Positions 4,432-28,839 of a DNA stretch of 64,000 nt are shown piece by piece. Under the pieces are notes generated by a model. It was given only the letters and a program-made list of their open reading frames with translations, was not told the DNA's origin and did not search any database. Numbering within the stretch: position 1 is the first letter of the stretch; the number at the start of each line of letters is the position of its first letter. The translations under genes were made by a program, and so were the position numbers. This DNA is from Octopus vulgaris (lineage: Eukaryota), in contig OX597821.1 in assembly GCA_951406725.2 (NCBI GenBank), positions 118,668,001 to 118,732,000 on the forward strand, in the 5' to 3' direction.

Positions 4432-4491
<60 letters not shown>

Positions 4492-4538
4492 TACTATTAT
4501 TATTATTATGATTATTATTATTATTATTATTAATATTA

Positions 4539-4611
<73 letters not shown>

Positions 4612-4612
4612 T

Positions 4613-5342: not shown

Positions 5343-5364
5343 TATCATCATCATCACCATCATC

Positions 5365-5451
<87 letters not shown>

Positions 5452-5971: not shown

Positions 5972-5991
5972 TACTGTTATTATTATTATTA

Positions 5992-6070
<79 letters not shown>

Positions 6071-6074
6071 CATT

Positions 6075-6631: not shown

Positions 6632-6942
<311 letters not shown>

Positions 6943-8818: not shown

Positions 8819-8820
<2 letters not shown>
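6943..8820 (-). mobile_element. 5'-truncated R4/Dong-clade non-LTR retrotransposon with an uninterrupted ~590-aa ORF (7046-8820: RT C-half, CCHC, restriction-like endonuclease)
   Basis: 'RGIFQGDTLSPLLF', 'HLLYMDDLKL', 'CRICGDGQETINHIISSC', 'RHDRV', 'RPDIVV...LIDVSVP...EKLPKY', 'PIIVGALG'. Short 3' UTR and (TAA)n on both sides, matching the known TAA-repeat targeting of Dong elements. Confidence 0.93.
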
Positions 8821-8850
<30 letters not shown>

Positions 8851-8851
8851 T

Positions 8852-11530
8852 TATTGCCGAGTACATTGGGCGTCTTTTTAAACGCTTGAAGTCCTTTTGA
8901 AAACACTTGTTTATACTCGGTTGGATATAAATTTTATTCTAAGTTCTTAATAGAAACACCAAAAACGTGTCACTGGGTTTCTGTGTTTGTTTTGCCCCTT
9001 GCGGGACTATATTTACCCTTCGAAATACGTTCGGTAGGCGTTTAATCATATAAAATGGAACAAGATGATGGTACCCAACTTGAAAGATTTCAGAAAGAAA
9101 ACTGCCCCCTCCTGCAGGTGTATTTACTACTGAAGATAACCCTTCCACACCTTCCCTCTTTTACTGGCAAAATACAAGACAAGGGTAGGAGAAAACGCAG
9201 GGGGAAAGCACAATGTCGACCTCGCAGCAGCAACAGTGAAAGCGGCAGGATTTGTCGCAAGAGTAGCAGCAGGAGCAACGGCGGAGGCAGCAGCAGTAGT
9301 ATCAGAAACAGCAATTTCGTTAACAATGCTACGGATTTTAGCGGGGAGTAGAATGTTACATTATAAACGAAGTCGAAGGAAAGAGCAGTAAGAGTAATGG
9401 TGAGAGTAGCACCACCACCACCACCACCAGCAACAACAACGACGACAACAACAAAGCCAAACAATTTCACGACATGGCGAACACAAAGAGGAAGATGTTT
9501 TCCGTTGCACTCGATGAGAAAACACTTGAACTCTCAAAAGCGAAAGACATTATTAAATTTGAGATGGATAAGGCAGCAGTGCTCGCACTTCCCGAAATAA
9601 TCGAGACAAAAGAAGACGGTCTATTTTAGGTTAATATCATGCAAAAGTAGAAGAGCAGAAATCGCCTCCTTCAGTCACGTTGAGAAGGCCCCAAAAGAAA
9701 TTTTAATAGATGTGGCCCATATATAGGTAGGGATGCAGTTTGCCACCATCAAAGTCCTCTTTAAAAGTGAGGACCACGTGCGAAGACATGCGTGAAGTCC
9801 TCCGATGGACTGAGAAATGTATTTTGCATCCCACCTACCTCGTAAAGAGGACGTCTAGGGTTAGGGTAACGGGCGTACCACCGGGTGTAAACGTCTAGTT
9901 GATTGTCGCATGTGTGATGCAGAACCAAGACATAGGCAAACCGCATCGGGTCTTCCAGATCGTATCTAAACAGAGTGTTTTGTAGGTCTGTAGATAGAAG
10001 TACTTTGCCGAATTGTACAGGGCGCACAGAATTGAAATGGGGACGGAGGTGGATTTCCACTCCTATCTCAGTGGTATACCACACCTCTCGGCTAGGGGTG
10101 CGGAGTTCTGCGAAATGCCGATAACACCCGAAGATATACGGGACGCGATGATTAGCTGCGCAAGAGAGAGGTCTCCGGGTCTGGAGACCCGTCGAGCTTT
10201 ATCATTATATGCCAGGCTTGTTCGATGACCTTTTGGCAGATGTATACGACAACAGACTGCAGAACCAGAGAATTCCCATTGCTGTGAATCGTGGAATAAT
10301 GGTGCTACTGAGAAAGGACTCGAACAAGGGGGACCAATTTCAGGCCCATAACGCTGCTAAACGCAGATTAGAAGATTTTGGGCGAGGTTTTAGGCAAGAG
10401 GTTGGCGCTTGTCGTCGATAGGCTGGTCGATATTCCGAACATATCTATTCACGACAACCTCCACCTCCGGTGCTACATCATTGAGCAGGTAGGGAAGGAA
10501 CCTGGCATGAGTAGGGCTCTGATCAATTTGGATCAATCTAAAGATTTTGATAGGTTCGACCACCAATACCTGGAGGCTGTTCTCAGCAGTGAGCTTTGGT
10601 CCCTTTTTCAGATGCTAGATCGCTTTTCAGCGGCATTTATTCGGTGATCAAAGTAAATGGCCACCTATCGGAATGGTTTAGCATCACTCGTTCAGTCCGT
10701 TAAGAAGGCCCTCTCTCGCATATTCTGTACACACTGGCTCTCGAGCAATTGCTACGGAAGCTGGATGTTTCGAGGGGCATCTCGCGTGATCTAGAATGCG
10801 GTAGTTTCGTGTCGGCTTATGCGGTCGACCTCACCATAGTAGTATCGGTCACCTCGGAAATTGAGGTGGTCGGCACTGCTGTAAGGGAGTACGGAGCAGT
10901 CGCAGGAGCAAAGATCAACCAGGAAAAGACGGTGGGCCTGCAACATGGCACCTGGAGAGACATGTCAACGCCAACCAACAGCGTTTTAGGGCATTGGACT
11001 AAAGGACCGGTTAATTTACTCGTGGTTTGGTTTGGTCCAGACCTCTATGTGGAGAGGAACTGATTGGATGTGACGAGAGGGGTAACCACTGTCACCGAGA
11101 AATAGGCAGAGAGGAGGTTGTCCTTCATGGCACGGCCGGAGGTGGCAAATGCGTACATCACTTCTGTCATCTACTACCGTCTGGCTGTCGTCCCTTGGCC
11201 CACTTCATGCCTGATAAAGCTGGAGCGCTTGCTTTTCCGTTCGTCAGACGTTCCATCTACTGTCAATAACCGCTGAGTTGAAGACTGGGCATGCCACGGC
11301 TAATGATGCGCAGACATGCGCTGAGCCTGCGATATCTCATAAATGTTTTCTTAACGGTGAGCAGCTGTGGTCGCCGTTTCTCAAACGGATTTTCCTCATC
11401 TCGTCTCATTGATGGACTTAGAGTCCTGGGTCAGACATAGACCAAGAAAGGGCGCTTGGAACTTGGAGTATAGGCAAGTGGTCACATCTTTCGGCTAGTC
11501 GAACAACATGGTCAGTGGAAGTTCCACAAA
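8852..11530 (+). mobile_element. Degenerate Tx1-like LINE (ORF1 and RT remnants)
   Basis: 'RERSPGL', 'IHDNLHL..LINLDQSKDFDRFDHQYL', 'SAYAVDLTI', 'GAKINQEK', with many stops and frameshifts; homologous to 34545-38330 and 58790-63050. Confidence 0.8.
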
Positions 11531-11848
11531 GATAAATTATAATAAATACATTTATTAATCCAATTTACATCGAATATTTTTTTTGTCGATTACAAAAAGA
11601 AAAGATAATTTTTTCTTTCAGAAATTGCATAAAACATTAGGTTAATCATTTTGGCAGCTTGGCTGATTTTGGCAAGTTTGGAGGTGGTCAATAAATAAGG
11701 AAACAAAACTTATAAAAAAGACGACGACGACGAAGAAGAAGAAGAACAATAACAACAACAACAACAACAACAACAACAATAGCAACAAGAAGAAGAACAA
11801 CAACAAAAACAATATTGAGAATTATATCGTGAGTGAAAGCGTCTGAAG

Positions 11849-11885
11849 AATACTGAGGCAACCAATTTGAGTATGGACAAGCTAT
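11849..11885 (-). pseudogene. Truncated LRR pseudo-exon (second cassette type)
   Basis: Shares acceptor context TTCTCCCTTTTATAAT and downstream CTTCAGAC..TTTCACTCACGATATAAT with the 12414-12485 unit. Has a CAG acceptor, an in-frame TAG, and lacks the 3' half and donor. Confidence 0.45.
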
Positions 11886-12413
11886 CTGAATTATAAAAGG
11901 GAGAATAAGATAGAATAGTTTCGTGATAAAATATTGAATATTGAGCGATAAGATAGGGAGGAAAACGAAAAATAATTAGGAGGATGAGGAAGAAATAAAT
12001 ATGAAGAAAAGGAAGAAGGAAAAGAAGGATAAAGGGGAATAAGAAGAAAATATTAAGGAAAAGAAGAAGAAAGAGGAAAAGAAGAAGAAGAAGAAGTAGG
12101 AGGAGGAGGAGGCGGAGAAAAAGGAGAAGAAGATCAAAAAAATGAAGAAGAAAAAAAAGTAAAAAAAAGAAGAGAAAACAGATGATGAACAAGAAAAAGG
12201 AGAAGGAGAAGGAGAAGGAGGAGGAGGAGAAGAAGAAGCAGAAGAAGAAGAAGAAGAAGAAAAACAAGGAGAAAAAGAAAAGGAAGAATAAATAGAAAAA
12301 GAACAAGAAGAAGAACGACAAGGAGAAGACGAAAAACAACAACAGCACCAATAACAAGAATAACAATATTATATCGTGAGTGAAAGAGTCTGAAGTAAAG
12401 AGAGACAAATTAC

Positions 12414-12485
12414 AAAAAAGGGAAACTGTAGAGATTTGGAAACAATCCAACGTTCATGTCCATAATATGTTTGCGGTTAAGGTGC
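12414..12485 (-). pseudogene. Degenerate 72-bp LRR exon (second cassette type)
   Basis: Phase-2 translation (L)HLNRKHIMDMNVGLFPNLYSFPF(L) keeps LRR spacing. Donor is GTAATT, but the acceptor reads CCG instead of CAG. Confidence 0.55.
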
Positions 12486-13771
12486 CGGCATTATAAAAGG
12501 GAGAATAATTAGAAGGATAGGGAAGAAGGAGTATGAAGAAGAAGAAAAGTAAGAAGGAAAAGAAGAGGAAGAAGAAGAGGTGGAAGAAAAAGGAGGAGGA
12601 GGGGGAGGAAGAAAAAAAGAATAAAAACAAAAACAACAAAAAGGAGAAGACGAAGGAGAAGACAAAGAAAAACAAGAAAGAAGAAAGGGGGAGAAGAGGA
12701 GCAGGAGGAGAAAAGAACAACGATAACAAAAAGAAGTAGAAGAAGAAAAAGAAATAAAAACAAAAGAAGAACAACAACAAGTACAAGAAGAAGAAAACGA
12801 AAAAGAAGAAGAAGAATTAGAAGAGGAAGACGGAGAAGAAAAAGAATTAAAAGAAGAAGAAGAAAAAAAGAAGAAGAAAGAAGAATTAGAAGAGGAAAGG
12901 GAATAATAATAATAAAAAGAAGAAGAAGAAGAAGAGGAAGAAGTAGAGGCAGACGCAAAAGAAGAAGAAGGAGAAAAAGAAGAAGAAGGAGAAAAAGAAG
13001 AAGAAGGAAAACAAGAAGAGAAAGTAGCAGTAGGAGGAGGAGGTGGAGAAGTAGAAGAAGAAGAAGAAGAAGAAGAAGAAGAAGGGGAAGAAAAAGAAGT
13101 AGAAGAGGAAGACGAAGAAGAAACAGAAAAAGAAGACGATGAGGATGATGATGATGATGAAGGAGAAGGAGGAGGTGGAAGAGGAGGATGAGAAGGAGAT
13201 GGAGGATATTGAGGATGAGGAGGAGGAGTAGGAGGAGAAGGAAAAGAAGAAGAAGGAGAAGAAGAAGAAAAGAAGAAGACGAATAAGGAAAAGAAGGAGA
13301 AGAACAAGAAAAAGAAAAAGAAGATGAAGAAGATGGGGAGGAGGAGGAGAAGGAGGAGGAGAAAAAGAACAAGAAGAAGGAAAAGAAGAAGAAGAAGAAG
13401 AAGAAGAAGAAGAAGAAGAAGAAGAAGAAGAAGAAGAAGAAGAAGAAATAATTACCATATACCAAGTTCATATAAAGTTACCAAGTTCTTATAAAAGTCA
13501 TTGAAAATTTGGGAACAAAAAAGAGTTTTTGAGATGCGAATTGAAACAAAGCAACTGCAATAAAGGAACATTTCTCTCTCAAATCCTCACTCTTTCTTTC
13601 ACATTGTCTCGCTCTCTCATATTCTCTCAGTATCTTCCTAAATCCTGTTCATTCTACAAATTTGAATAGATTTTGTTCGGTGCAGTCTGAAAGTTTTTAC
13701 ATTTGTGAGCTTATATATCAGCATCAATTATTACTTTCGGAAGATAGTATCAAGAAACTGAACGAACTTAC

Positions 13772-13843
13772 AAGTAGATTAAATTCGAAAGACCCGTGAA
13801 TGCACCTTCTTCGATGGTTGAAATGTTGTTGTTCTTCAGATGT
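13772..13843 (-). CDS. LRR gene, LRR exon 6: (L)HLKNNNISTIEEGAFTGLSNLIY(L)
   Basis: 72 bp, acceptor CTTTACTGCTATAG, donor GTAAGT, phase 2/2, open frame, canonical 24-aa extracellular LRR. Confidence 0.9.
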
Positions 13844-14339
13844 CTATAGCAGTAAAGAAAGTGTAAAATAGATTAGATGGAAAATATTTGTGATGCAGCA
13901 TGATACACCGTGGCTTTAGAATGAAAGGAAGAGAAAGAAGAAGAAGAAGAAGAAGAATATGATGACGATGATGATGGTGATGATGATGAAGAAGAAGGAG
14001 GTGGAGGTGGATGAGGAGGAGAAGGAGGAGGAGAATAAGATGAATACAAAGAGGAAGAAAAGAAGCCGAACAATAAGAACCACAAGTAGGAGAAATAGAA
14101 GAAGTATAAGACAAAGAAGAAGAAGAAGAAGAAGAAGAAGAAGGAGGAGCAGGAGCAGGAGGAGGAGGAGAAGAAGAAAAACAAGAAGAAGAAGAGAAGA
14201 AAAAGCAGAAGAAGGAGAAGGACGAGGAAATGGAGGAGGAGCAGGATCAGGATGAACAGGAGTAGGAGTAGGATTAGAAGAAGAAGAAGAAGAAGAAGAA
14301 GCAGAAGAAGAAGAAGAAGCAGAAGAAGAAGAAGAAGAA

Positions 14340-14371
<32 letters not shown>

Positions 14372-14736
14372 AGAAGTAGAAGAAGAAGAAGTAGAAGAAG
14401 AAGAAGAACAAGTTACCATATACCAAGTTCATACAAAAGTCTTTGAAATTTTGGGAACAAAAATGAGTTATTGAGATGCGAATTGAAACAAAGCAACTAC
14501 AATAAAGGAACCCGAAATATTTCCTATTATTTCACTTTCTCTCTCAAATTCTCTCTCTTTCTTTTACATTGTCTCGCTCTCTCATATTCTCTTTGTATCT
14601 TCGTAAATCGTGTTCATTCTACAAATTTGAATTGATTTTGTTCGGTGCAGTCTGAAATGTTATACATTTGTGAGCTTATATATCAGCATCAAATATTACT
14701 TTCGGAAAATAGTATCAAGAAACAGAATGAACTTAC

Positions 14737-14808
14737 AAGTGGATTAAATTGGAAAGCCCCGTGAATGCACCTTCTTCGATGGTTGCAATGTTGTTGTCCT
14801 CCAGATGT
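14737..14808 (-). CDS. LRR gene, LRR exon 5: (L)HLEDNNIATIEEGAFTGLSNLIH(L)
   Basis: 72 bp, TAG acceptor, GTAAGT donor, phase 2/2, open frame. Confidence 0.9.
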
Positions 14809-15405
14809 CTATAGCAGTAAAGAAAATGTAAAAAAGATTAGATAGAAAATATTTGTGATGCAAATGAATGAAAGGAAGAAAAAGAAGTAGAAGAAGAAGA
14901 AGAGGAAGAAGGAGAAGAGGAAGAAGAAGAAGAAGAAGAAGAAAATGAAGAAAGAAGATGATGATGTAGAAGTAGAAGATGAAGAAGAAGAAAGAAGGAG
15001 GAGTTGGAGGAGGAGGATTTGGAGGAGGAGAAAGAGGAGAGTAAAAAGAATAAAAAGAGGAAGAAAAAGAAGAAGTCGAGCAACATAAACCAAAACAATT
15101 TGGAGAAATAGAAGAAGGATAAGACAAAGAAGAAGAAGAAGAAGAAGAAGGAGGAGGAGACGAAGAAGAAGAAGAAGAAGAAGAATGAGGAGAAGGAGGA
15201 AGATGAAGGAGCAGGAGGAGGAGGAGCAGGGTTAGGCGGAACATGAGTAGGAGTAGAAAGAGAAGGAGAAGAAGAAGTAGAAGAAGAAGAAGAAGAAGAA
15301 GATGTGGAAGAAAAAGAAGATGAGGATGAAGAAGAAGAAAAGAGGATAAGAAGAAGATAAGAAAAAGAAGAATAAGAAGTAGAAGATTAAGAAGAAGTCG
15401 AAGAA

Positions 15406-15437
<32 letters not shown>

Positions 15438-15827
15438 AGAAGAAAAGAAGAAGGAGACGAAGAAGAAGAAGAAGAAGAAAAAGAAGAAGGAGGAGAAGAA
15501 GAAGAGGAAGAAGAAGAGGTAGAGGAGGAAGAAAAAGAAGAAGAAGAATAAAAAGATGAAGGAGACGAAGAAGAAGAAGGAGAAGAAAAAGAAGGAGAAG
15601 AGGAGAACAAGAAGAAGAAAAGAAAAAGAGGAAGAGGAAGGAGGGGGAGGAGGAGGAAGAGGAGGAGCAGCGGGATTAGGCGGAACAGGAGTAGGAGTAG
15701 AAAGAGAAGGAGAAGAAGTAGAGAAGAAGAAGAAGAAGGAGACGAAGAAGAAGAAGAAGAAGAAGAAGGAGGAGAAGAAGAAAAGAAGAAGAAGAAGAAA
15801 AAGAAAAAGAAGAAGAAGAAGAAGAAG

Positions 15828-15859
<32 letters not shown>

Positions 15860-16248
15860 GAAGAAGAAGAAGAAGAAGAGGAAGAAGAAGAGGAAGAAGA
15901 AGAATTTACCATATACCAAGTTCATATAAAGTTACCAAGTTCATATAAAAGTCTTTGAAATTTGGGGAACAAGAATGAGTTTTTGAGATGCGAATTGAAG
16001 CAAAGCAACTACAATAAAGGAACATTAAATTTTTCCTATTATTTCACTTTCTCTCTCAAATTCTCTCTCTTTCTTTCATATTTTCTCGCTCTCTCATATT
16101 CTCTTTGTATCTTCTAAAATCGTGTTCATTCTACAAATTTGAATAGATTTTGTTCGGTGCAGCCTGAAATATTTTACATTTGTGAAATTAAATAAGTACA
16201 TCAAATATTACTTTCGGAAAATAGTATCAAGAAACAGAATGAACTTAC

Positions 16249-16320
16249 AAGTAGGTTAAATTGGAAAGCCCCGTGAATACACCTTCTTCGATGGTTGAAA
16301 TGTTGTTGTTCACCAGACCT
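16249..16320 (-). CDS. LRR gene, LRR exon 4: (L)GLVNNNISTIEEGVFTGLSNLTY(L)
   Basis: 72 bp, TAG acceptor, GTAAGT donor, phase 2/2, open frame. Confidence 0.9.
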
Positions 16321-17487
16321 CTATAGCAGTAAAGAAAGAGTAAAAAGGATTAGATGGAAAATATTTGTGATGCAACATGAAACACCGTGGCTTTAGAATG
16401 AAAGGAAGAAAAAGAAGAAGGAGAAGAAAAAGAAGAAGAAGAAGAAGAAGAAGAAGAGGAAGAGGAAGAAAAAGAAGAAAGAAGATGATGATGTGGAAGC
16501 AGAAGATGAAGGAGAAGAAGAAGAAGGAGGAGGAGTTGGAGGAGAATTTGGAGGAGGAGAATGAGGAGAGTAAAAAGAATAAAAAGAGGAAGAAAAAGAA
16601 GAAGTCGAGCAACATAAACCAAAACAATTTGGAGAAATAGAAGAAGGATAAGACAAAGAAGAAGAAGAAGAAGAAGAAGAAGAAGGAGAAGAAGAAGAAG
16701 AAAAAGAAGAAAAGAAGAAGAAGAAGAAGAAGGAGACGAAGAAGAAGAAAAAGAAGAAGAAGGAGAAGAAGAGGAAGAAGGAGACGAAGAAGAAGAAGGA
16801 GAAGAAGAAGAAGAAAAAGAAGAAAAGAAGAAGAAGAAGGAGACGAAGAAGAAGAAGAAGAAGGAGACGAAGAAGAAGAAGAAGAAGAGGAAGAAAAAGA
16901 AGAAGGAGAAGCAGAAGAAGAATAAGAATAAGAAGAAGAAGGAGACGACGAAGAAGAAGTAGAAAAGAAGATGAAGGAGAAGAAGAAGAAGAAGAAGAAG
17001 ACGAAGAAAAGAAAAAGAGGAAGATGAAGGAGGGGGAGGAGGAGCAGGATTATGCGGAACAGCAGTAGGAGTAGAAAGAGAAGGAGAAGAAGTAGAAGAA
17101 GAAGAAGACGAAAAGAAGAAGACGAAGAAGAAGTAAAAGAAGATAAGAAGAAAATAAGAAGAAAGTACCATATACTAATACAAATTCATATAAAAGTCAT
17201 TTTGGGATCAAAAATGAGTGTTTGAGATGCGAATAGAAACAAGGCAACTACAATAAAGGAACATTAAATTTTTCCTATTATTTCACTTTCTCTCTCAAAT
17301 TCTCTCTCTTTCTTTCACATTGTCTTGCTCTCTCATATCCTCTTTGTATCTTCCTAAATCGTGTTCATTCTACAAATTTGAATTGATTTTGTTTGGTGCA
17401 GTCTGAAATTTTATACATTTGTGAGCTTATATATTAGCATCAAATATTACTTTCGGAAAATAGTATCAAGAAACTGAACAAACTTAC

Positions 17488-17559
17488 AAGCCCTCTAAAT
17501 TGGAAAGCCCCGTGAATGCACCTTCTTCGATGGTTGAGATGTTGTTGTTATCCAGACCT
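17488..17559 (-). CDS. LRR gene, LRR exon 3: (L)GLDNNNISTIEEGAFTGLSNLEG(L)
   Basis: 72 bp, TAG acceptor, GTAAGT donor, phase 2/2, open frame. Confidence 0.9.
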
Positions 17560-19163
17560 CTATAGCAGTAAAGAAAGAGTAAAAAAGATCATATGGAAAA
17601 TATTTGTGATGCAACATGAAACACTGTGGCTTTAGAATGAAAGGAAGAGAAAGAAGGAGAAGAAGAAGAACTAGAAGAAGAATATAATGACGATGATGAT
17701 GGTGATGATGATGATGAGAAAGAAGATGAAGAAGAAGGAAGTGGAGGTGTAGGAGGAGGAGGAGGAGGAGAATAAGAAGAATACAAAAAGGAAAATAAAG
17801 AACTAGAACTAGAAGAATCACAAGTAGGAGAAAGAGTGGAAGGATGAGACAAAGAAGAAAAAGAAGAAGAAGAAGAAGAAGAAGGAGAAGAAGGAGAAGA
17901 AGGAGGAGGAGGAGAACAAGAAGAAATAGAAGATAAGAAAAAGAAGAAGGAGAAGAAGGAAGAGGAGGAAGAAGGAGAAGAAGAAGAAGAAGAAGAAGGC
18001 GGAGGAGGAGCAGGAAGTGGGGGAGGAGCAGGAAGTGGAGGAGGAGCAGCATCAGGAAGAACAGGAGTAGGCGAAGAAGGAGAAGGAGAAGAAGAAGAGG
18101 AAGAGGAAGAAGGAGAAGAGGAGGAAGAAGAAGAGGAAGTGGAAGAAGAAGAAGAAAAAGAAGATGAAGAAGAAGAGGCAGAGGAAGAAGAAGATGATGA
18201 TGATGATGATGATGAAGAAGATGAAGAAGAAGAAGGAGGAGGTGGAAGAGGAGGAGGATGGGAAGGAGATGGAGGAGATTGAGCAGGAGAAGGAGTAGGA
18301 AAAAGAAGAATAAGAAGAACCACAAGTAGGAGAAATAGAAGAGGATAAGACAAAGAAGAAAAAGAAGAAGAAGAAGAAGAAGAAAAAGAAGAAGAAGAGA
18401 AAAAGGAGAAGAGAAAAAGTAGATGAAGAAGGAGGAGGAGGAGGAGCAGGATTAGGCGGAACAGGAATAGGAGTAGAAGGAGAAGGAGAAGAAGAAGAAG
18501 AAGAGGAAGAAAAAGAAGAAGAAGAGAAAAAGGAGATGCAGAAGGAGGAGGAGGAGGAGCAGGATTAGGCGGAACAGGAGTAGGAGTAGAAGGAGAAGGA
18601 GAAGAAGAAGAAGAAGAAGAAGAGAAGAGATGAAGGAGAAGAAGAAGAAAAAAAGAAGACGAATAAGAAGACGAATAGGAGAAAAAGGAGAAGAAAAAGA
18701 AGAAGACGATGAAGAAGAAGAAGAAGAAGAAGAAGAAGAAGAAGAAGAAGAAGAAGAAGAAGAAGAAGAAGAAGAAGAAGAAGAAGACGAAGAAGAAGAC
18801 GAAGAAGAAGAAAAAGGAAGAAGATAAGAAGAAATTACCATATACTAATACAAATTCATATAAAAGTCATTGAAATTTGGGGAACAAAAATGAGTTTTTG
18901 AGATGCGAATAGAAACAAAGCAACTGCAATAAAGGAACATTAAATTTTTCCTATTATTTCACTTTCTCTCTCAAATTCTCTCTCTTTCTTTCACATTGTC
19001 TCGCTCTCTCATATTCTCTTTGTATCTTCCTAAATCGTGTTCATTCTACAAATTTGAATTGATTTTGTTCGGTGCAGTCTGAAATATTTTACATTTGGGA
19101 AATTATATATATACATCAAATATTACTTTCGGAAAAGAGTATCAAGAGACTGAACGAACTTAC

Positions 19164-19235
19164 AAGCCCTTTAAATTGGAAAGCCCCGCGAATGCACCTT
19201 CTTCGATGGTTGAAATGCCGTTGTTCTGCAGACGT
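19164..19235 (-). CDS. LRR gene, LRR exon 2: (L)RLQNNGISTIEEGAFAGLSNLKG(L)
   Basis: 72 bp, TAG acceptor, GTAAGT donor, phase 2/2, open frame. Confidence 0.9.
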
Positions 19236-19828
19236 CTATAGCAATAAAGAAAGAGTAAAGTAGATCATAAGGAAAATATTTGTGATGCAGCATGAAACAC
19301 CGTGGCTTTAGAATGAAAGGAAGAAAAAGAATACAGATAACGAAGAAGAAGTAGAAGAAGAAGAAGAAGAAGAAGAAGAAGAAGAAGAAGAAGAAGAAGA
19401 AGAAGAAGAAGAAGAAGAAGAAGAAGAAGAAGAAGAAGAAGAAGAAGAAGAAGAAGAAGCAGAAGAAGAAGAAGAAGAAGATAAGAAGGACATAAGAAAT
19501 TACCATATACTAATACAAATTCATATAAAAGTCATTGAAATTTGGGGATCAAAAATGAGTTTTTGAGATGCGAATTGAAACAAAGCAACTACAATAAAGG
19601 AACATTAAATTTTTCCTATTATTTCACTTTCTCTCTCAAATTCTCTCTCTTTCTTTCACATTGTTTCGCTCTCTTATATTCTCTTTGTATCTTCCTAAAT
19701 CGTGTTAATTCTACAAATTTGAATTGATTTTGTTCGGTGCAGTCTGAAATATTTTACATTTGTGAGCTTATATATCAGCATCAATTATCATTTTCGGAAA
19801 ATAGTATCAAGAAACTGAATGAACTTAC

Positions 19829-19900
19829 AAGTACTTTAAATACGAAAGCCCCGTGAATGCACCTTCTTCCATGGTTGAAATGCTGTTGTTCACCAGATCT
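19829..19900 (-). CDS. LRR gene, LRR exon 1: (L)DLVNNSISTMEEGAFTGLSYLKY(L)
   Basis: 72 bp, TAG acceptor, GTAAGT donor, phase 2/2. Joins in frame to the LRRNT exon (...IPPNTTS-L-DLVNNSI). Confidence 0.9.
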
Positions 19901-21091
19901 CTATAGCAGTAAAGAAAGAGTAAAAAAATATTTTAAGGAAAGCATTTGTGATGCAACATGAAACACCGTGGCTTTAGAATGAAAGGAAGAAAAAGAAGAA
20001 GGAGAAGAAAAAGAAGAAGAAGAGGAAGAAAAAGAAGAATATGATGATGATGATAATGATGATGATGATGAAGAAGATGAAGAAGAAGGGTGTGGAGTTG
20101 GAGGAGGAGGAGGAGGAGGAGGAGGGGGAGATGGAGGAGGAGTATAAGAAGAATACAAAGTGGAAGAAAAGAAGCCGAACAAGAAGACCACAAGTAGGAG
20201 AAATAGGAGAAGAAGAAGGATAAGACAAAGAAGAAAAAGTGGAAGAAGAAGAAGAATAAGAAGAAGGAGAAGAAGAAGAAGAAGAAGAAGGAGAAGGAAA
20301 ATAAGATAAGAACAAGAAGAAGGAGGAGGAGGAGGAAGTGGAAGAGGAGCAGGATCAGGAGGAACAGGAGTAGGAGAAGAAGGAGAAGAAGAAGAAGAAG
20401 AAGAAGAAGCATAAGAGGAAGGATAAGAAGAAGAAGATGAAGAAAAAGAAGTTAATGATCATGATGATGATGATACTAAGGAGGAGGATGAGGGGTGGAA
20501 GATGAGGAGATTGAGAAGGAGAAGGAGAAGGAGAATAAGAAGAATAAGAAGAGGAAGGAAAAGTAGGCGAACAAGATGTGCCACAAGTAGGAGAAATAGA
20601 AGAAGGATAAGACAATGAAGAAGAAGAAGAAGAAGAAGAAGAAGAAGAGAAAAAGAAGAAGTAGGAGGGGCGGAGGAGAGGGGTGAAGAGGAGGGGGAGG
20701 AGGATGAGATAGTGGAAGATGAGCAGGTTCAGGTGGAACAGGAGTAGGAGGAGGAGGAGAAGAAGAAGAAAAAGACAAAAAGAAGGATGAGTAGGTGGAG
20801 GGGAGGGGAGAGGAGGAGGAGGAGGAGCAGGTTCAGGAGGAACAGGAGTAGGAGAAGGAGAGGGAGAAGAAGGAGAAGAAGAAGAGAAAAAGAAGGATGA
20901 GTAGGTGGAGGGGAGGGGAGGTTAGGAGGAGGGGGAGGAGGAGGAGCAGGTTCAGGAGGAACAGGAGTAGGAGAAGGAGAGGGAGAAGAAGGAGAAGAAG
21001 AAGAGAAAAACAAGGAGGAGTAGGGGGGGAGGGGAGGGGAGGGGAGGGGGGAGCAGGTTCAGGAGGAACAGGAGTAGGAGAAGGAGAGGTA

Positions 21092-21122
<31 letters not shown>

Positions 21123-21199
21123 AAGAAGAAGGTGATGATGATGATGAACATGAAAAAGATGAGCAACAAGAACAAGTAGAAGAATGATGATCAAATTTG

Positions 21200-21905
21200 A
21201 CATTCTGAATAAGGCTCTGAATAATAATGGATCACGTTTTCACTCTATCTACATCCCATTTCCTGATCCGAGCAGTGGAATGAACAAATCGAAAAATGGA
21301 TGAACGATGGCAACTTTGTAAATTCAAGGAATTACATTGAAGCAACAGGATGGAATTCCACTTTAATAATTGCAAATGCCTTTTTAGGCAACACGAAAAC
21401 ATCGAACAGTGCTGAAATAATCGACAACATGCTGGAGAGCTTTTAGCATTTGGGCACAAATATCAGTATATAGCCGCACTATTTCCACAACTACAACAAA
21501 CAAGGAGAACATTTCCTTCGGGACATAAAAGGAATGAGACAAAGGTAACAAGGCGGATATGATGGCGGAGGTTCAGCACTCAAGAAAATCATCCAAACGC
21601 AAATTCTTGAGATATTACACATAAACAATGATGACCTTTGTCTATAGAAAGTTTAAGAATTTTACTAGATTTTCAATAGAATTTAAAAAAAAAACTTTTT
21701 GGTTTTGAAGAAAAACCAGTTTCTATGTATGTTTTTATGTTATGCCTTGATCCACATAAGCTTTTTTATTGGAAAAATAATGAAATTCTGGGAACCAATT
21801 ATCTTAAAATCGTGATGTGATGGCAATAAATAGGTGTCATTTTCGGATACTGTGTGTCAAAACAATTCTGGTTCAGCTTCAGATGTTTTTGTTTACCTAA
21901 CAGGA
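21200..21905 (+). mobile_element. Decayed DNA transposon 3' remnant, Chapaev3-like
   Basis: Frameshifted peptide pieces such as 'FLGNTKTSNSAEIIDNMLESF*HLG', 'HYFH' and 'QGEHFLRDIKGMRQR*QG' resemble the Chapaev3 transposase C-terminus (..HxLHSH..QGERFHQDI..RYQG). Family recalled from memory. Confidence 0.55.
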
Positions 21906-22269
21906 TTTCCAAAGTATTTTCTTGAATAAAATTCAACTTTGCCTTACACCTAGAACAGAGGTTTCCATTTACAGATCTATGAATTCTGATAGCCATAAAA
22001 ATGTCATATTTTCTTTTGATTAGGAAAAAAGCACTTTTCAATACTCTTCACAGGACGGTCGATTCCAATGGGAAGAAGAGAGGATCAGAATGCTTAAAAC
22101 GAAAGGGATTTCACTAAAGGAACTCAAACTGCCAAATGGTGGTGTCGAACCGAAATGTGGTTTAAGCCTACCAATCAAATAGATCATTAGAGTAGAGACA
22201 GAGAACGGGTACAGCATACCTGTGGAGCACAGCCAAGGGTACCCTCAAGGTTACTTGAATGGTAGCCCT

Positions 22270-22915
22270 GGTTTACTTGTCGTTGAAAATGCTGGGCTTC
22301 ATTAGCAACGAGCATCTCTCTTGGCGAAAGCAGATCCCTAGCACAGCTAGGACAGAATCCAAAAGAATAACCCTTCCCATTGGAGCCAGAAGTTATCTCG
22401 GTCCCCTACAGCTGTTGACACTTTACAATGTTCAAATAAAGCCCACTATGAGGAATTCTCCTCCTTTGGAACCGTGTTGCACATAGACATCCTGGATCGC
22501 ATTTAGAAAAGGACGACTTGGTTACATGGCAATCCATCCTTAACAGACACACTTTATTCTCTGTTTCACAGACAGGTTGTCTTCTCTCAGTGTTTTTTTT
22601 TCTTTCGCTGTTATATTACAGACTCTTCTTCCAGGAGCTGACTGACCGCGTATCCACACCAATCAGGTACTGCCAATTCACTTGTCTATCCCCTTCGTAT
22701 CATCCTTGATTCATTAAACCTCAGCCCGTTCCCAGTGTTAACCATTATGCTTAATCCTTAATCCCCCAAAACATCGTCCATCTTCCTGTAAGTGTTGAAC
22801 TGTGACAATTTAATCGGAATCTTAATGGTATCTCTTTCATCCGTATTGGAGAACCTGCAAGAGTTATGGAACTTGTCTGCTCCTTTCTCTAACATCGGAA
22901 AAATAAAAAAAATAG
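22270..22915 (+). mobile_element. Old LINE (CR1/Jockey-group) 3' remnant
   Basis: 'LSWRKQIPSTARTESKR...YLGPLQLLTLYNVQIKPTM' resembles the post-RT region of these LINEs; A-rich end at ~22900. Confidence 0.55.
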
Positions 22916-23830
22916 CATCACAAGCCATCGGACACTGCGTCTGATTCGACGTCCTTACAGTTACCCTATAAAGATTTATGGTTGTTTTTTTGATCTCAAA
23001 AATGTATCACATAAGGTCGACCTCGGAGGAATTTGAAGTTAGATTGTCAAGTGTTACAACAAATGCTCGATTTCTGCTAATTCGCTCTTAAATTATGAAT
23101 GATGAAAATATTTAACTTATTAAATAGAATATCGACTTTACTATTCAACATCTTGAGGTATAAGAGATTTAGATAATACCGTTATTCAAATTTTGCTGTT
23201 TGTTTTACGTTAGGATTTTCTCATTTGGTCAAAACGTTCCCAATTTGTTGAGAAATAGATCTGATTGAATGAATCGATCCGCTTACATATAATTATATTT
23301 GATTAAAACTGTGAGTTTATAGTGATTTATGCAATGATGCAAGTCATTTAAGTAGAAATAATCGCCTGGAACATAGATTACTTGCTGTGATTGTCACGAG
23401 TGTGTATTAAATCATATATCTTATTTTATGCCATCTTTTAAGACGTTAATGTTTGAAGAACATATAATTCTAAGATTGCTGTTTATCACAAATTTGGGAA
23501 ATGATAAGAGTTGAACCCACTGCCGTAAGTTAATAAAGCACGTAAATGTTTCATCAGTTTTCAGTCGAACTGGGACAGATCAATCAGTTGAAATTTCAAT
23601 TAATCTTAAATCATTTTATCTCTAATAAAATGATCGAAGACGTGCGGTACTGTGTCCAGTTTTTTTTCTTCCATGTTATTAAAAAAGTCATATTACTATA
23701 AAGTTTATTTTTATATTAAACATAAATCATAATGCTTAATATTACAAGATTCGCTTCCGTTTTAAATATCAGCTTCCGTTTGAATTCCATATGTAAACAA
23801 ATAGTTTTTCTTCGCGTTCGTAAAAAATGT

Positions 23831-24101
23831 AAACAATTGCAGTGTGGAAGATATTTGTAAGCCATTCAAGAATACACAAATACCCTTTGTTCGCTTCAAC
23901 AATTCAATTTCATTTGTGTCAAAATATGTTCCTCTCTTTGAAACCGCGACCTGTTCGCTAACAAAACTTCGTCAGTGAACAGGTTGCGGTTTTAAAGCGA
24001 CGAAAATATTTTGGCACAAATGAAATTTAAATGTTGAAGCGAAACTAACGGTTTTTGTGTTCTTCAATGGCTTACAAATATCTTCCATGCTGCAATTGTT
24101 T
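23831..24101. mobile_element. ~270-bp foldback/MITE-like palindrome
   Basis: AAACAATTGCAGTGTGGAAGATATTTGTAAGCCATT... pairs with ...AATGGCTTACAAATATCTTCCATGCTGCAATTGTTT, and pairing continues to a short central loop near 23960-23975. Confidence 0.85.
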
Positions 24102-24454
24102 TAGTTTTAGTACATTATCCCACATCAAGTCACTTGCTACGCATGTACATCACCGTATAAATGTAATATAGATAAAAACAACAATCTATCTGTCTGTCTG
24201 TCTATCTGTCTGTCTGTCAATCTGTCTGTTTATAATATAATGATTGAAAATATGCTGGGCTGTGTCCGGTTTATTTCTTTTTCTCCATCTTATTAAAAAG
24301 TCAAATTACTTTGAAGAAATTATAAATGAAGATTAATCAAGGATTATTTGCTGATTACAAAATAACCTATAACAGTTTTATTTTTTCAATTCAAGTGCAT
24401 ATTTTCAATTTACTTTGTAATTTATGTATCATATACTCTTACTCTTTTCTCTTT

Positions 24455-24829
24455 TACATATTTCAGTCATTTGACTGCGGCCATGCTGGAGCACAGCCTT
24501 TAGTCGAGCAAATCGAGCCCGGGACTTATTCTTTGTAAGCCCAGTACTTATTCTATCGGTCTCTTTTGCCGAACCGCTAGGTGACGGGGATATAGACACA
24601 CCAGCATCGGTTGTCAAGCAATGCTAGGGGGACAAAAACAGACACACAAACACACATACACATACATATATATGTATATGTATACATACGACAGGCTTCT
24701 TTCAGTTTCCGTCTACCAAATCCACTCACAAGGCATTTGTCGACCCGGGGCTATAGCAGAAGACACTTGCCCAAGGTGCCACACAGTGGGACTGAACCCG
24801 GAACCATGTGGTTGGTTAGCAAGCTACTT
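24455..24829 (-). mobile_element. Octopus-type SINE/repeat composite; tRNA-derived SINE body whose head is split by the 24830-27101 insertion
   Basis: Minus strand carries a B-box-like GGTTCAGTCCC followed by CORE-like ACCTTGGGCAAGT. The A-box part (TGGCTGTGTGG) lies at 27102-27145. Confidence 0.75.
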
Positions 24830-27101
24830 TATTTCATAACATTTGCCATAAAGGCAGTACATAGAGTAAGTTAGCTTTGCGGGCTGGACGAGGACATTAA
24901 TGAAGTGAATGATAATGAAAGAAAGATGAAGCGCCCGCCCACTTCTGCTTCTCTAAAACATTGTTCTTTTAAAAACAAACACAAAACGAGGTATTAAACC
25001 TCTTACAATTTTTTCAATTTTTGTACTTAGCAGTCCATTACTAATAACAACATAGTTCAATAATTACATATATAAATACAATACACAAAGCCCCTCCTCC
25101 CAGACCTGGTTTACACTTCCCTTAGGAATGCGCCAGCTCTAGGTCGGGGCCCCTCAAGTCGTATCACAATTTGACTCGTCCTCGAAATAACTTGTGCCTG
25201 CGCCCTCCACCATCCACCACGCCTCCCTCAGAACGTAATCGAGTTCCGAGTTAGCGTCGCCCGGGACCAAGCTATAATCCTCATTGAGCTCCTTCAGCCC
25301 AAGCGTCACGTCGAACGCCACGGCCTCCACAGCTACCTGCGGAGGCCATTCGGGGTCCTGTGTGAAGGCTAAAGGTACTCCCTTGTGGTGCTTTTCCATC
25401 ACCTTTTCAATCTCTCCGCCTCTATGGAAGAGGATCAATACATTCAATTCTTTCGTTGGCGGCACAGTTCCCGCCAACGGTATTTCTTCTCCTGTCGGTG
25501 GCACAACCCCAACCGACGTAGTTCCGGGACATTCCGGTGCTATGTCACCGACAGCCGGTAATGTCCCCTTTCTCTTCCTCTTTTTCTTTTTTTTTCTTTT
25601 CAACTGAGGGAGGGTGCGTCTCCTCCGTGGCCGGAAGATTCGCCTTTCCCTCCTCATCCCTAGTATCCTTCGGTGAGCACCCATTGTTGCTCACCTTCCT
25701 CTTTCGGCCTCTGTTTGAGGAGTCCTCTGCTTCCTCGGCCGTTATCATTCCCTCTTCTACAGGGGTTTCACTTAACTGTTCCGGGATCCTATTTTGTTCC
25801 CGGGGACAGTTCTTCTTTATGTGGCCGGACTCCAAGCACCGATGACACTTAGGGGGGCGACCCTCAAGCATCACCGGGTACCTGCACCCGGCCATTTTCA
25901 AAAAATCTGGAAGAACCAGATTGGCTGATTGGGTCCAAAGGGTCAAAATTGCTTTTGACCCAACCCAAGCAGTCGCAGGAAGAACTTTTACATTAAGGAG
26001 CTTAGTTTCGCTGCTACCCAGAACCCGGCGGATAGTCTCCTCTATCCACTCGGGTTCTATCCCGGGTGGCAGCCCGCAAATCAAGCTTTCGTCAGTCTCT
26101 TTTTTGGTACGTGGGCAGGAATAAAATTTCCTTACCCTCCAGGGGTTTGCTAGCAAATTCGCAAGCCTCTTCAAGGGTGTCAAATAGCAACCATACCGTT
26201 GCATATTTGACACCCCTGGAAATGAATTTAATTGTTGGCAAATACTCTGCCAACTCCTTTTAAATTGCCGTCTTTTCGAATAGGGCGATGGTGTCGAGTG
26301 ATTTGGAGTAGGTTCTCAACACCACCGTCCTATCTTCACGGTCTTTTAACCACTTTTTAGGCGGTATGATCTCCCATTCCAAAATTTTGTCATTTTTCGT
26401 TGCCATGTTTTTTTGTTTTTTTTTAAATATATTCAAATTAAACTTAAAAGCGAGAAGAAAAAGTTCAAAAGTCCAAATAAAATTTTATAGATTTTTGAAA
26501 AAACAAAAAGGAGAAAGCACAACAGAAGGGAAGGAATCAACGGAAAGTCGCAATAAACAAATAAAAAGGGAGGGGGTGTTAAATGAAGTTCAAAAGAAAG
26601 TTAATAAACAGAAAAAACACAGCAAAAATCTTCTGGCCCTACGGTACTCCCGGCCTGAGTTGAACCTGGAACGCCGCAACTGTGACACAACCTCCACAAA
26701 AATGGGTCCGAAAGGTAATCCAATAGTGGCTTATTTTTATAATTTTCTTGCGAAGTACTCTGACAAAGGGATAAATTCAACAAACCCAAACACAGCACTG
26801 GCTACCGCCGACGGTAATTTTAACAGTAACTGTATTGGGTTCCGAGGATACGCACCTCCACTGTTTTTTTTCAATAAACACAAAAACGGCAGCCGCCGAG
26901 AGCAGGCGGAATTGTCTCAGAGTTGGACACAACTTACTGAAATAATAATTGGCACGTAATAAATTATGCCCAACTCACAATAAACAAAATCACTCACCTC
27001 GACAACTTTCCGTTTTTAGTCTTTTTTCTGTAATTGGACGGAGCTGGTTACTCACGTCCACTCTGGCTCAACAGGAAGTAACTGACTAACTGCGCATGTG
27101 T
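24830..27101 (-). mobile_element. ORF1-only Tx1-type non-autonomous retroelement with 15-bp TSD
   Basis: TSD GTTAGCAAGCTACTT at 24815-24829 and 27102-27116. ORF1 runs from ATG 26406 (MATKNDKILEWEIIPPKKWLKDREDRTVVLRTYS) to ~25154 with one stop and about two frameshifts, and contains the zinc knuckle 'EGRPPKCHRCLESGHIKKNCP'. No EN or RT sequence. Confidence 0.82.
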
Positions 27102-27113
27102 GTTAGCAAGCTA

Positions 27114-27200
27114 CTTACCACACAGCCACTCCTGCGCCTATACTTACCACACAGCCACTCCTGCGCTTATACTTACCACACAGCCACTCCTGCGCCTATA
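27114..27200. repeat. Three tandem 29-bp copies of the SINE 5' head
   Basis: CTTACCACACAGCCACTCCTGCGC(C/T)TATA x3. Confidence 0.9.
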
Positions 27201-27502
27201 CATATTTATATGTATAAATAATATTAGTGCGTGTAATACATATACTAGCAAACCACCGGAGGGGCAGTTTTCCTGCGAGTAGGACTAATAATTAATATGT
27301 GTTCATGTCTGAAAAGTTATTATGTTTGTGGTAGCGTAAATTTTACTGATGACATTCTATTAAAAATAAATGTTTCATCATCTGTTCACATAAAACTATT
27401 TTGCATTCATTAATTACGTATTTTAAGAATTTGACAATTTAAACGGGTCTCGTTATTTTTTTACAGTTTAATCTGCCTGGGTCATTTTTAATTGTAAAAA
27501 TA

Positions 27503-27710
27503 ACCATTCCTACTCTAGAAACAAAGCCTGCAATTTGGGGGTAAGGGACCTATTCCTTTACATTGATCGCACGGCTAAATTAGTATTTATTTTATCGACC
27601 CCGAAAGAAGGAAAGGCAAAGGCAGTCTCGGCGGAATTTGAACTCGAAATGTAAATACGGACGAAATGCCGCTAAGCATTTTGTTCCGATGTATTCAACG
27701 ATTCTGACTT
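27503..27710 (-). mobile_element. tRNA-derived SINE with Nin/Deu-like central domain
   Basis: Minus strand GAGTTCAAATTCCGCCGAG...TTTGCCTTTC..CTTTCGGGGTCGATAAAATAA. Related copies at ~30007-30200, 32555-32745, 33015-33190, 52972-53165 and 53415-53590 (+), with a fragment near 23010. Confidence 0.75.
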
Positions 27711-28172
27711 TTAATTGTAAAACTAATACAATCAAACAATAATTAACAATAATTAACATCTATTATGCGATGGGATCGACTGATATTATATCATATTAAT
27801 GTGACAATAAGCAACAATCCAAATAATTAAAGCAATAATATAATTCTATGAGAGACACAACACGTTTTATAAGCACCAAAGTTTCCCTACTGTCCGTTGG
27901 TTGAATGTGCCATAAGGAGATTTGGTGGCATCAGACAAATAACATCAAAGTTCAGATAGTAGTCAGATCCAAATCATCGTGTATGCAATGTTATAAATAA
28001 TAAATTCAGTATAAGTAAACATTGAATGAGAAACAACTTCTTTGACCTCACAGCAAGTAACATATCGGTCTGTTTTACTCTAACATTGTGTTTAAAGCTG
28101 TGAGATCAATAACATAAGCAATTAGCGAAGAACATAATCGATGAAAATATGTAGAAAGAATCAAGTACTTAC

Positions 28173-28372
28173 AAAGATGTAGTATTTGGGGGTATATTTT
28201 TGGGGACTGAAGTTAACTGTTTGCCTATACAATCTACATTTCCAGACGAATCGCAATTACATATGGTGCATGTATCTGGCACAGCATGAGCCCCGAAAAC
28301 CAATCTTGTATACAGTATCAACATAAATGTCCATTGGACTAACATAGTTTGACGGAACATATTTTCAGGCAT
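28173..28372 (-). CDS. LRR gene first coding exon: signal peptide + LRRNT cap
   Basis: MPENMFRQTMLVQWTFMLILYTRLVFGAHAVPDTCTICNCDSSGNVDCIGKQLTSVPKNIPPNTTS(L): hydrophobic leader and CxxCxC...VDC..LTSVPxNIP LRRNT motif. Phase-2 donor TT|GTAAGT at 28172. Acceptor TTTTCTTCTTTTACAG just upstream (exon starts 28376). Confidence 0.9.
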
Positions 28373-28839
28373 AAATCTGTAAAAGAAGAAAATAGAAAAT
28401 ATCAGACTTCGATGTTATGACTTTCATGCCGCAGATTCTTCGAAGGAAGCAAAGTTCCCCCCCTGTTCCATGTGACGAATATGGCTTTGTTTTCATAATT
28501 TGTTATTTAAAATTAAAAATTTATGTTTCGAGAAATCAGTGTGAAGAAATTTATTAGAGATAATAGCTTTAATGGGTGATAATGGCAAAGAAAACTGGAC
28601 ATCAAACACACACACACACACAAACAAACAAACGGTCCCCTACACATTCCCATACAGTAACCATATTTGGTGGATCTACTGTCAAATTAATGAATCATAA
28701 GTTTCAGGACCCTAAACTTGTGGTGCTTCTAAACCCAATTAGGCTGCTAAATCCGATGGGTCCCCTTAAGCACCTGTATTGTAACGAATGATTTTTTCTG
28801 CACCCAAGGTTTTAAGGCGTTCACACGAATTATATTTGT

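Follow-up and report, generated by a model that had tools for sequence, protein, structure and literature searches.

Adhesion GPCRs are mostly known for conserved roles in adhesion and in the sensing of force, and the head of vertebrate ADGRG6/GPR126 consists of CUB and pentraxin domains. In octopuses such receptors have expanded; the results and discussion of Ritschard et al. 2019 describe their group 3 as carrying GPS and class-B2 7TM, lying in tandem clusters, bearing LRRs in 5/22 members and having no positively selected sites, with 21-22 sequences counted across the species of that study (PMC6408891). ROCO LRR genes of brown algae encode each 24-aa LRR in one 72-nt exon of variable number, and they show inactivated exons, clustering, pseudogenes and positive selection on the concave face (Zambounis 2012, PMC3341825; Teng 2024, PMC11378527). 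In the germline, VLR genes are incomplete; they have a single intron in the 5' UTR and draw on flanking donors (PMC3308329).

We find that the minus strand of the window (the whole stretch of Octopus vulgaris DNA that was analysed, 64,000 nucleotides) carries six 72-nt exons, all open, phase 2/2, each with a TAG acceptor and a GTAAGT donor; together with its junction codon each encodes one 24-aa LRR, so that the claim of the earlier note of a precise one-LRR exon in every copy holds for 6/6. The features within the window are as follows.

28173..28376, minus strand: first coding exon, signal peptide and LRRNT; ATG at 28360, phase-2 donor
19901..28172, minus strand: intron 1, 8,272 nt, with the start of the GAA tract inside it
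25545-26315, within intron 1: CCHC zinc-knuckle retroelement remnant
19829..19900, minus strand: LRR cassette exon 1 (cassette unit 19500-19990; PF13855 E 0.0015, below cut-off)
19164..19235, minus strand: LRR cassette exon 2 (cassette unit 18835-19324)
17488..17559, minus strand: LRR cassette exon 3 (cassette unit 17166-17648)
16249..16320, minus strand: LRR cassette exon 4 (cassette unit 15936-16409)
14737..14808, minus strand: LRR cassette exon 5 (cassette unit 14413-14868)
13772..13843, minus strand: LRR cassette exon 6 (cassette unit 13482-13932)
11948..21184, no strand: low-complexity tracts rich in GAA/GAG, differing in length, that separate and surround the cassettes (Tandem Repeats Finder)
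1..13771, minus strand: 5' portion of the intron of 18,286 nt that precedes the terminal LRR exon

Against these six exons, 30 order-1 Markov simulations gave a mean of 0.23 per window (range 0-1). The array had been described as a ~480-bp satellite repeated six times; six cassettes are indeed present, with a unique part of 451-491 bp and 86.3-92.1% identity to the first copy, but the period is not fixed, because GAA tract lengths vary and the introns between the cassettes measure 593, 1604, 1167, 1440 and 893 nt. The GAA tracts are part of the duplicated unit, and alignments of paralogues pass through them at 72-85%. The proposed splicing to a signal-peptide and LRRNT exon 8.3 kb away stands as a predicted join, with the phase-2 donor and an intron of 8,272 nt. 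This first exon holds a second in-frame ATG at 28372, matches the LRRNT profile weakly (PF01462, E 0.0024, below cut-off) and shares 68% identity with residues 1-63 of O. sinensis XP_036370808.1, which is a complete LRR adhesion GPCR. A genome search with it gave 41 candidates, of which 40 were scored and 40/40 match; at the protein level, comparison of the exon with longer proteins produced no candidate.

The gene spans about 120 kb and extends past the window, with 19 further coding exons outside it on the same contig and the minus strand, at the following contig positions.

118,663,485, minus strand: terminal LRR exon
118,654,731, minus strand: LRRCT exon
118,650,599 and 118,646,382, minus strand: Ly6-like exons
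118,643,729 and 118,641,474, minus strand: two SEA exons, the third missing
118,633,647, minus strand: HormR exon, followed by the GAIN exons
118,610,547, minus strand: GPS exon
up to 118,582,325, minus strand: TM exons; last exon near 118,576,900

The predicted order is thus SP - LRRNT - (LRR)n - terminal LRR - LRRCT - Ly6-like - SEA - HormR - GAIN/GPS - 7TM. The exon chain is collinear with XP_036370808.1, and annotated homologues run continuously from LRR head to 7TM. The GPS exon matches PF01825 at E 7e-15 and the TM5-7 exon PF00002 (7tm_2) at E 3e-13, and every TM exon is open. To judge by its sequence, then, the window gene is an adhesion GPCR (class B2) and not a VLR-type gene, and the SP-LRRNT-(LRR)x6 that had been taken for the product is the N-terminus of that receptor, whose GPS and 7tm_2 exons lie on the same strand. 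The Ly6-like assignment is tentative: the exons show a cysteine pattern ending in CCxxxxCN, as the Ly6 consensus does, with PF16975 at E 0.017 (below cut-off) and pLDDT <50 there; the ESM Atlas gave no usable match for the Ly6-like or SEA segments. For the predicted structure of XP_036370808.1 the best match is 6v55, the ectodomain of zebrafish Gpr126 (Foldseek E 5e-18; model residues 251-718, Z 21.1, rmsd 9.8, 345 aligned), and the model also gives fold matches to GAIN structures. With vertebrate ADGRG6/GPR126 the gene shares the SEA-HormR-GAIN-7TM stalk, the CxCxHL|T cleavage motif and the TxFxxLM agonist core, both intact here and defined as in PMC13197933, whereas the octopus head is an LRR array plus Ly6-like domain and the octopus family is large, fast-changing and multigene. 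The same domain order, LRR - Ly6-like - GAIN - 7TM, is met in adhesion GPCRs of Nucella, Ylistrum, Saccostrea, Acanthaster, Lytechinus and Tubulanus, by a motif scan of eight proteins with Pfam LRR/GPS/7tm_2 confirmed on two; the scan gives 2-6 LRR starts per protein. Being common to these bilaterians, the architecture is old.

We propose, at a probability of roughly 0.78, that the six exons encode the head of an octopus adhesion GPCR, a variable binding region whose cassettes are shuffled and whose concave face is under selection. On that face alone the residues change fast, as is seen in receptors whose targets keep changing. Near-identical units of exon, intron and GAA tract would cross over unequally, so that whole repeats are gained, lost or swapped; given that every exon is 72 nt long with phase 2/2, such changes should leave the frame intact. 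Short gene conversions would make the introns alike and reshuffle the exon's two variable ends, while selection would maintain differing residues on the concave face. The beta-strand is interrupted by the intron, so that every binding strand is made up of the 3' end of one exon and the 5' end of the exon that follows, and new strands arise whenever an exon is duplicated or skipped. Binding of ligand, or pull on the LRR head, may then be passed on along the usual GAIN/tethered-agonist route. The LRR head would thereby act like an immune-receptor array, changing in repeat number, recombining and diversifying on its binding face only; if true, it is a specific candidate, open to testing, for variable recognition among cephalopods, and such a head would be a likely reason for the 2019 expansion, for which site-level selection was not reported.

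Is the window copy itself active? The paralogue at C30:18.2 Mb has a 158-nt SEA exon that is missing here and replaced by ~650 bp of a young repeat, which has at least 181 matches, the best of them 98% identical (40/1103 candidates scored), and orthologous splicing of the window gene leads to a stop at codon 424. Further copies of the family are broken: at C31:5.05 Mb the LRRCT exon contains a stop, and at C30:18.28 Mb the TM1 exon is frameshifted. These points argue for a recent pseudogene, or a short secreted LRR-Ly6 product, at an inactive locus with the family-level account unchanged, a reading that deserves attention yet appears unlikely. Against it, the remaining exons are all open with canonical sites, 6/6 cassettes and the cleavage and agonist motifs included, and dropping both remaining SEA exons (83+53 nt) keeps the frame; only without SEA exons is a full in-frame model possible, and in the nearest O. 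sinensis models, XP_036370685.1 and XP_036370684.1, which share 86-87% identity with the window gene, Ly6 is joined straight to HormR. Most likely the window copy works as a SEA-less receptor, as its exon chain predicts. A continuous frame across the missing SEA exon was considered and rejected, as it needed non-orthologous splice sites.

The wider family places the gene, by homology, in the octopus-specific expansion of adhesion GPCRs described as group 3. Three homologues of the window gene are on the group 3 list of Ritschard et al. 2019 (PMC6408891), and a quick tree of 132 rows puts the gene in a 32-row clade (SH-aLRT 99) that also holds 6 rows of the group-3 clusters (A0A0L8FLR8, A0A0L8GYR2); A0A0L8GB41, also group 3, is absent from this tree. 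Ectodomain matches are Octopus-labelled or unlabelled in 37/37 cases (36 Octopus, 1 without organism name), TM matches are Octopus in 14/15 and Argonauta in 1/15, and one 7TM exon finds 51 matches in the O. vulgaris assembly at E below 1e-21. In Octopus, group 3 is annotated 'ADGRG6/GPR126-like'. The results and discussion of Ritschard et al. 2019 do not describe one-LRR exon cassettes, LRR copy-number variation, the Ly6-like and SEA domains or paralogues lacking the transmembrane part. A literature search, with most subscription journals outside it, turned up no publication that deals with exon cassettes for LRRs in the adhesion GPCRs of octopus, and the variable behaviour of the LRR head appears unreported before.

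Two classes of ligand are considered for such a head. Fast-changing non-self, that is microbes or parasites encountered on skin, suckers or gills, is the likeliest, and we hold it at about even odds. An endogenous ligand, with the same gene and the same diversification serving as a protocadherin/Dscam-like code for neural wiring or self-identity in the nerve cord of the arm, the suckers and the skin, is a tentative second choice. [quoted passage not shown] Diversification of the concave face, broken copies and scattered clusters, however, seem closer to host-defence families, one family member has a C-terminal death domain, and an 'adhesion GPCR G6', a candidate family member, occurs abundantly in the skin mucus of O. 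vulgaris (PMC11431876). Doubtful, and more so than either the endogenous ligand or the inactive locus, is a full combinatorial recognition repertoire derived from an old adhesion GPCR, in which dozens of polymorphic genes with hypervariable LRR strings, exon skipping cell by cell and soluble paralogues in mucus or blood would form an immune receptor system or a self-mark of sucker and skin. Self-recognition by sucker and skin is reportedly the subject of an earlier study.

The expandable, modular extracellular LRR head that had been claimed, and its cephalopod setting, are borne out by the genome search for paralogues and cassettes that the earlier note had proposed: the cassette is present in 16/18 paralogue regions examined, with 2-23 intact copies each, and C30:20.165-20.215 Mb has no family exon. 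A genome search with a single exon as protein (10 matches of 132 candidates) was too short for cassette counts. Altogether 104/124 cassette matches are intact, encoding 94 distinct peptides, and the other 20/124 show truncation, a frameshift or some other defect. The paralogue at C31:5.36 Mb lacks a transmembrane part and has the same C-terminus as O. sinensis XP_029637051.2; paralogues of this kind may be soluble binders or decoys. O. bimaculoides models without TM were not counted as soluble forms, since they end at the GAIN exon boundary and are probably split gene models. The likeness to exon shuffling in Ectocarpus ROCO genes, also put forward earlier, is supported and extended: the octopus cassettes share with ROCO the single 72-nt exon per LRR, the variable number and, in addition, a selection signal on the concave face. 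The ROCO head, in contrast, sits on a ROC-COR GTPase and the octopus head on the extracellular side of a GPCR, and ROCO loci carry LRR exons on the non-coding strand whereas the 18 octopus regions gave no reverse-strand match. The two are of independent origin.

The cassettes differ from one another mainly at codons 1, 3, 4, 22 and 23, with 13, 14, 11, 6 and 14 residues respectively, which are the exposed concave-face positions of LxxLxLxxNxL; six framework residues of the 24-aa LRR are invariant. At these five codons, chosen from the LRR consensus after the alignments had been viewed so that the test was not blind, pN is 0.46-0.56, compared with 0.06-0.07 for the remaining 18 codons and an intron divergence of 0.06-0.15; the concave-face pattern recurs in 11/11 arrays that have 5 or more intact exons. 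Along the cassette, diversity is highest at the two ends of the exon (0.43 and 0.19), with introns mostly at 0.01-0.11 and one bin at 0.17. The 5' variable codons are linked to one another (p 0.0005) and unlinked to codon 23 (p 0.13-0.27), and 277/378 site pairs fail the four-gamete test, failures that may also arise from recurrent change at hot codons. A combination of duplication in the germline, gene conversion and diversifying selection fits these data, similar to what is seen in brown-algal ROCO genes. Neutral repeat turnover, by GAA-driven slippage and unequal exchange with exposed residues merely unconstrained, would agree with the GAA tracts that flank every cassette, with the 20/124 matches that are not intact and with the GY codon model, which lends no support to omega >1. 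The codon models are over-parameterised and inconsistent (207 parameters on 5 codons), MG giving omega 2.6 (2dlnL 15.6) and MGK a 2dlnL of 9.4. Neutral turnover predicts a neutral rate, however, and in 344 cassette pairs (not independent) with flank divergence <=2% (mean 0.011) the first and second positions of concave codons differ at 0.46, against 0.12 at other third positions; codon 1 varies at positions 1-2 (0.67, 0.53) and hardly at position 3 (0.04), and the exposed convex side is conserved. We consider neutral turnover improbable.

VLRs, with whose layout the note had compared the gene, do resemble it in SP-LRRNT-variable 24-aa LRRs-terminal LRR-LRRCT, in the variable concave face and in the patchwork of modules, but are not supported as the closest kind: they are assembled somatically, in a deaminase-linked process, from flanking donors in either orientation, have no coding introns, a Thr/Pro stalk and no 7TM, whereas the octopus gene is complete in the germline, with one intron per LRR and then Ly6-like, SEA, GAIN with its GPS, and 7TM. 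That the cassettes are donors copied somatically into a receptor expressed in immune cells is accordingly very improbable, for all the concave variation, LRRNT/LRRCT caps, patchwork exons, soluble paralogues and VLR structures among the fold matches of the LRR part, since the germline gene is complete, unlike the incomplete VLR locus (PMC3308329), and all cassettes found in the 18 regions lie within genes, in sense and with intact splice sites.

In public RNA runs, a search with 13400-20000 was dominated by GAA words (19/20 rows share 0.13-0.23), and many matches came from food or seawater metagenomes. When cassette 1 was compared with four runs, three touched simple repeat only; the fourth covered exon and introns equally, in many variant contigs and with no splice joint, and thus behaves like multi-copy DNA, uninformative on splicing. 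Several public gene models omit or misread cassette exons, and the position of these exons inside GAA tracts explains why the feature is easily overlooked.

The six minus-strand LRR exons of 72 nt that the earlier note had described are borne out by the sequence and by an exon scan, which finds 6 such exons in the window vs a mean of 0.23 in 30 simulated sequences. The phase-2 exon placed upstream of them, with signal peptide and LRRNT, is likewise confirmed. Cassette units are 451-491 bp long and 86-92% identical to the first of the six; the introns between them measure 593-1604 nt, the spacing following GAA-tract length.

Exons of the LRR head (window positions)
28376-28173, minus strand: exon 1, signal peptide and LRRNT, phase-2 end, 8,272 nt upstream of the first cassette exon
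19900-19829, minus strand: cassette exon, 72 nt, TAG acceptor, GTAAGT donor, open frame
19235-19164, minus strand: cassette exon, the same
17559-17488, minus strand: cassette exon, the same
16320-16249, minus strand: cassette exon, the same
14808-14737, minus strand: cassette exon, the same
13843-13772, minus strand: cassette exon, the same

DNA comparison past the window, which covers C8:118,668,001-118,732,000, reveals collinear conserved blocks between the flanking DNA and paralogues. These encode a terminal LRR, LRRCT, a two-exon cysteine-rich Ly6-like domain (so labelled from its cysteine pattern and a sub-threshold profile match), SEA, HormR, GAIN, GPS and seven TM helices, so that SP-LRRNT-(LRR)x6, the layout first proposed, would describe only the head. 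Pfam recognises GPS (E 7e-15) and 7tm_2 (E 3e-13) in the window gene's own exons, and its cleavage motif and agonist core agree with the definitions in the available part of PMC13197933. In all, the gene covers about 120 kb, in which 26 coding exons were located. A matching exon chain, from a homologous first exon on to the 7TM, is present in O. sinensis XP_036370808.1 (1022 aa); for its AlphaFold model, whose quality is modest (mean pLDDT 57.5), the best match is the zebrafish Gpr126 ectodomain, across model residues 251-718. A non-LTR retroelement lies in a long intron of the window gene (7046-8938, minus strand): an open frame of 630 aa matches RVT_1 and zf-RVT, and a long run of TAA comes after it. 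Local segmental duplications relate ~31,000-41,300 to 43,600-63,500 in blocks of 0.8-3.2 kb that are 87-95% identical and consist of retroelement remnants and simple repeats, with endonuclease and RT fragments at 48,269-50,112. A TM exon of a second family member lies on the opposite strand about 55 kb past the window end (C8:118,786,590-118,786,946, plus strand), and none of that member's exons was found in the window.

By its sequence the window gene belongs to a known family, group 3 of the octopus-specific adhesion GPCR expansion. A quick tree built from 132 GPS-7TM rows places it in a clade of 32 rows (SH-aLRT 99) that includes six rows of listed group-3 clusters, and three group-3 members named in the accessible part of Ritschard et al. 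2019 (PMC6408891) fall in clusters of its homologues. The same part of that paper reports LRRs in 5 of 22 group-3 sequences, positive selection at branch level and none at site level, and expression in nerve cord, suckers, skin and gills. One TM exon searched against the O. vulgaris assembly gives 88 matches among 120 candidates, 51 with E < 1e-21, and 34 of these 51 lie on C29-C31. The domain order is old, as it recurs in related, LRR-poor proteins of a snail, bivalves, a starfish, an urchin and a nemertean. At C9:28.33-28.88 Mb more than 20 weak matches to class-B GPCRs lie clustered; they are probably intronless genes, since most frames are open for 400-714 aa, and may represent Ritschard's Methuselah-like group 4. 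The O. bimaculoides member XP_014788728.1 (P0031) carries an LRR head, 7TM and a C-terminal death domain, which would link it to immune or death signalling.

Among 18 paralogue regions, picked from match lists rather than sampled at random, 16 carry the window-type cassette, with 124 matches, 104 of them intact (2-23 per region; counts may be low in four regions perhaps cut at the edge of the examined DNA). The remaining two hold arrays of different 72-nt LRR exons, also duplicated; a second cassette type is interleaved in four regions, and a nineteenth had no family exon. Among the 20 non-intact matches are truncated copies and copies with 1-nt indels; assembly error may account for some. The array of 23 exons at C30:18.2 Mb contains repeated blocks, each two to four cassettes long, a pattern expected from unequal crossing-over. 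One gene model from O. sinensis opens with a first exon that is 97% identical to that of a 2-cassette locus, yet it carries 9 cassettes, two of which are exact copies of cassettes at two other loci. Duplicated LRR exon blocks of a different make occur in other subfamilies, one showing a five-exon period and the other an alternation of two exon types (L093-L095, C30:18.47-18.50 Mb; L090-L092, C29:15.94-15.95 Mb); cassette amplification is therefore recurrent in the family. On C31 a tandem array of ~6.1-kb period (L016-L020, 5.07-5.12 Mb) directly follows a truncated paralogue, and the genes at 4.98-5.07 Mb are head-to-tail ectodomain-only duplicates. First exons of C31-type paralogues (e.g. L010, L011, L059) are 76-97% identical to one reference, varying in the LRRNT part and otherwise near-identical.

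The 104 intact exons encode 94 distinct peptides, in which six framework residues are invariant and codons 1, 3, 4, 22 and 23 carry 6-14 residues each. With the junction leucine, we take these codons to be LxxLxLxxNxL positions 5, 7, 8, 2 and 3, whose side chains the concave strand exposes. Non-synonymous difference is 0.46-0.56 at the five codons, which were not chosen blind, vs 0.06-0.07 elsewhere. The LRR concave face is named as the binding face in the available parts of PMC3341825 and PMC3308329. The contrast is present in all 11 arrays with at least five intact exons (0.50 vs 0.09 in the window array). In 344 low-flank-divergence pairs, which are not independent, first and second positions of the five codons differ at 46%, against 12% for third positions elsewhere. 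Given that the flanks of these pairs differ by only 1.1% on average, introns appear to have been homogenised while exon ends were kept different. In one clade (63 cassettes) the four-gamete test fails for 277 of 378 site pairs; linkage joins the 5' variable codons to one another, and codon 23 is independent of them. On the other side, codon models lend only mixed support to selection, with an omega of 2.6 under MG and no support under GY.

Gene structure and pattern of variation can be read from the DNA itself. As to exchange mechanism, ligand and signalling, we infer the following. Symmetric exons would let repeats be added, lost or swapped with the frame kept, and long near-identical introns and GAA tracts would supply homology for unequal exchange and conversion. 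New binding faces would be kept by selection, with extra mixing from the fact that every strand spans an exon junction; through the GAIN/7TM part, binding would lead to a G-protein signal. Nerve-cord expression of a family member would fit a neural or self-identity code, which we consider the less likely of two readings: diversification accompanied by broken copies, expression in gill and skin, the death-domain member and an octopus mucus protein of unverified identity (PMC11431876, accessible part) speak instead for non-self recognition at body surfaces, to which we give a probability of about 0.5. The suggested likeness to brown-algal ROCO LRR exon shuffling holds as a mode of working, according to the available parts of PMC3341825 and PMC11378527; the arrays work alike and are not related. 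VLRs, whose layout the note had set beside it, do not come out as the nearest kind: the octopus gene fails to show their defining features. The adhesion GPCR family was known already; our literature search turned up no account of cassette arrays or of selection on the concave face in its octopus members, and the accessible part of PMC13428168, a 2026 review of immune diversification, mentions neither.

The window gene is without a 158-nt SEA exon present in the C30 paralogue, and ~650 bp of a young high-copy repeat take its place:

L037:6034-6686 (C8:118,634,034-118,634,686): young repeat at the lost SEA exon, inverted arrangement

Units of this repeat, ~362 bp and 98% identical, form tandem and inverted arrays on many contigs (1103 candidates). 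Orthologous splicing of the window gene meets a stop at codon 424; omission of the two remaining SEA exons keeps the frame, and the two closest O. sinensis RefSeq entries (86-87% identical), which are predicted models, join Ly6 straight to HormR. Soluble family forms probably exist, because the C31:5.36 Mb paralogue runs from LRR-Ly6-SEA-HormR-SEA to the family's last exon without a GAIN or TM exon, and O. sinensis XP_029637051.2 has a like C-terminal end. The RNA runs searched gave no spliced reads for the window gene. For another member, O. bimaculoides has three isoform models, each of which omits a different single LRR, a hint of splice-level variation.
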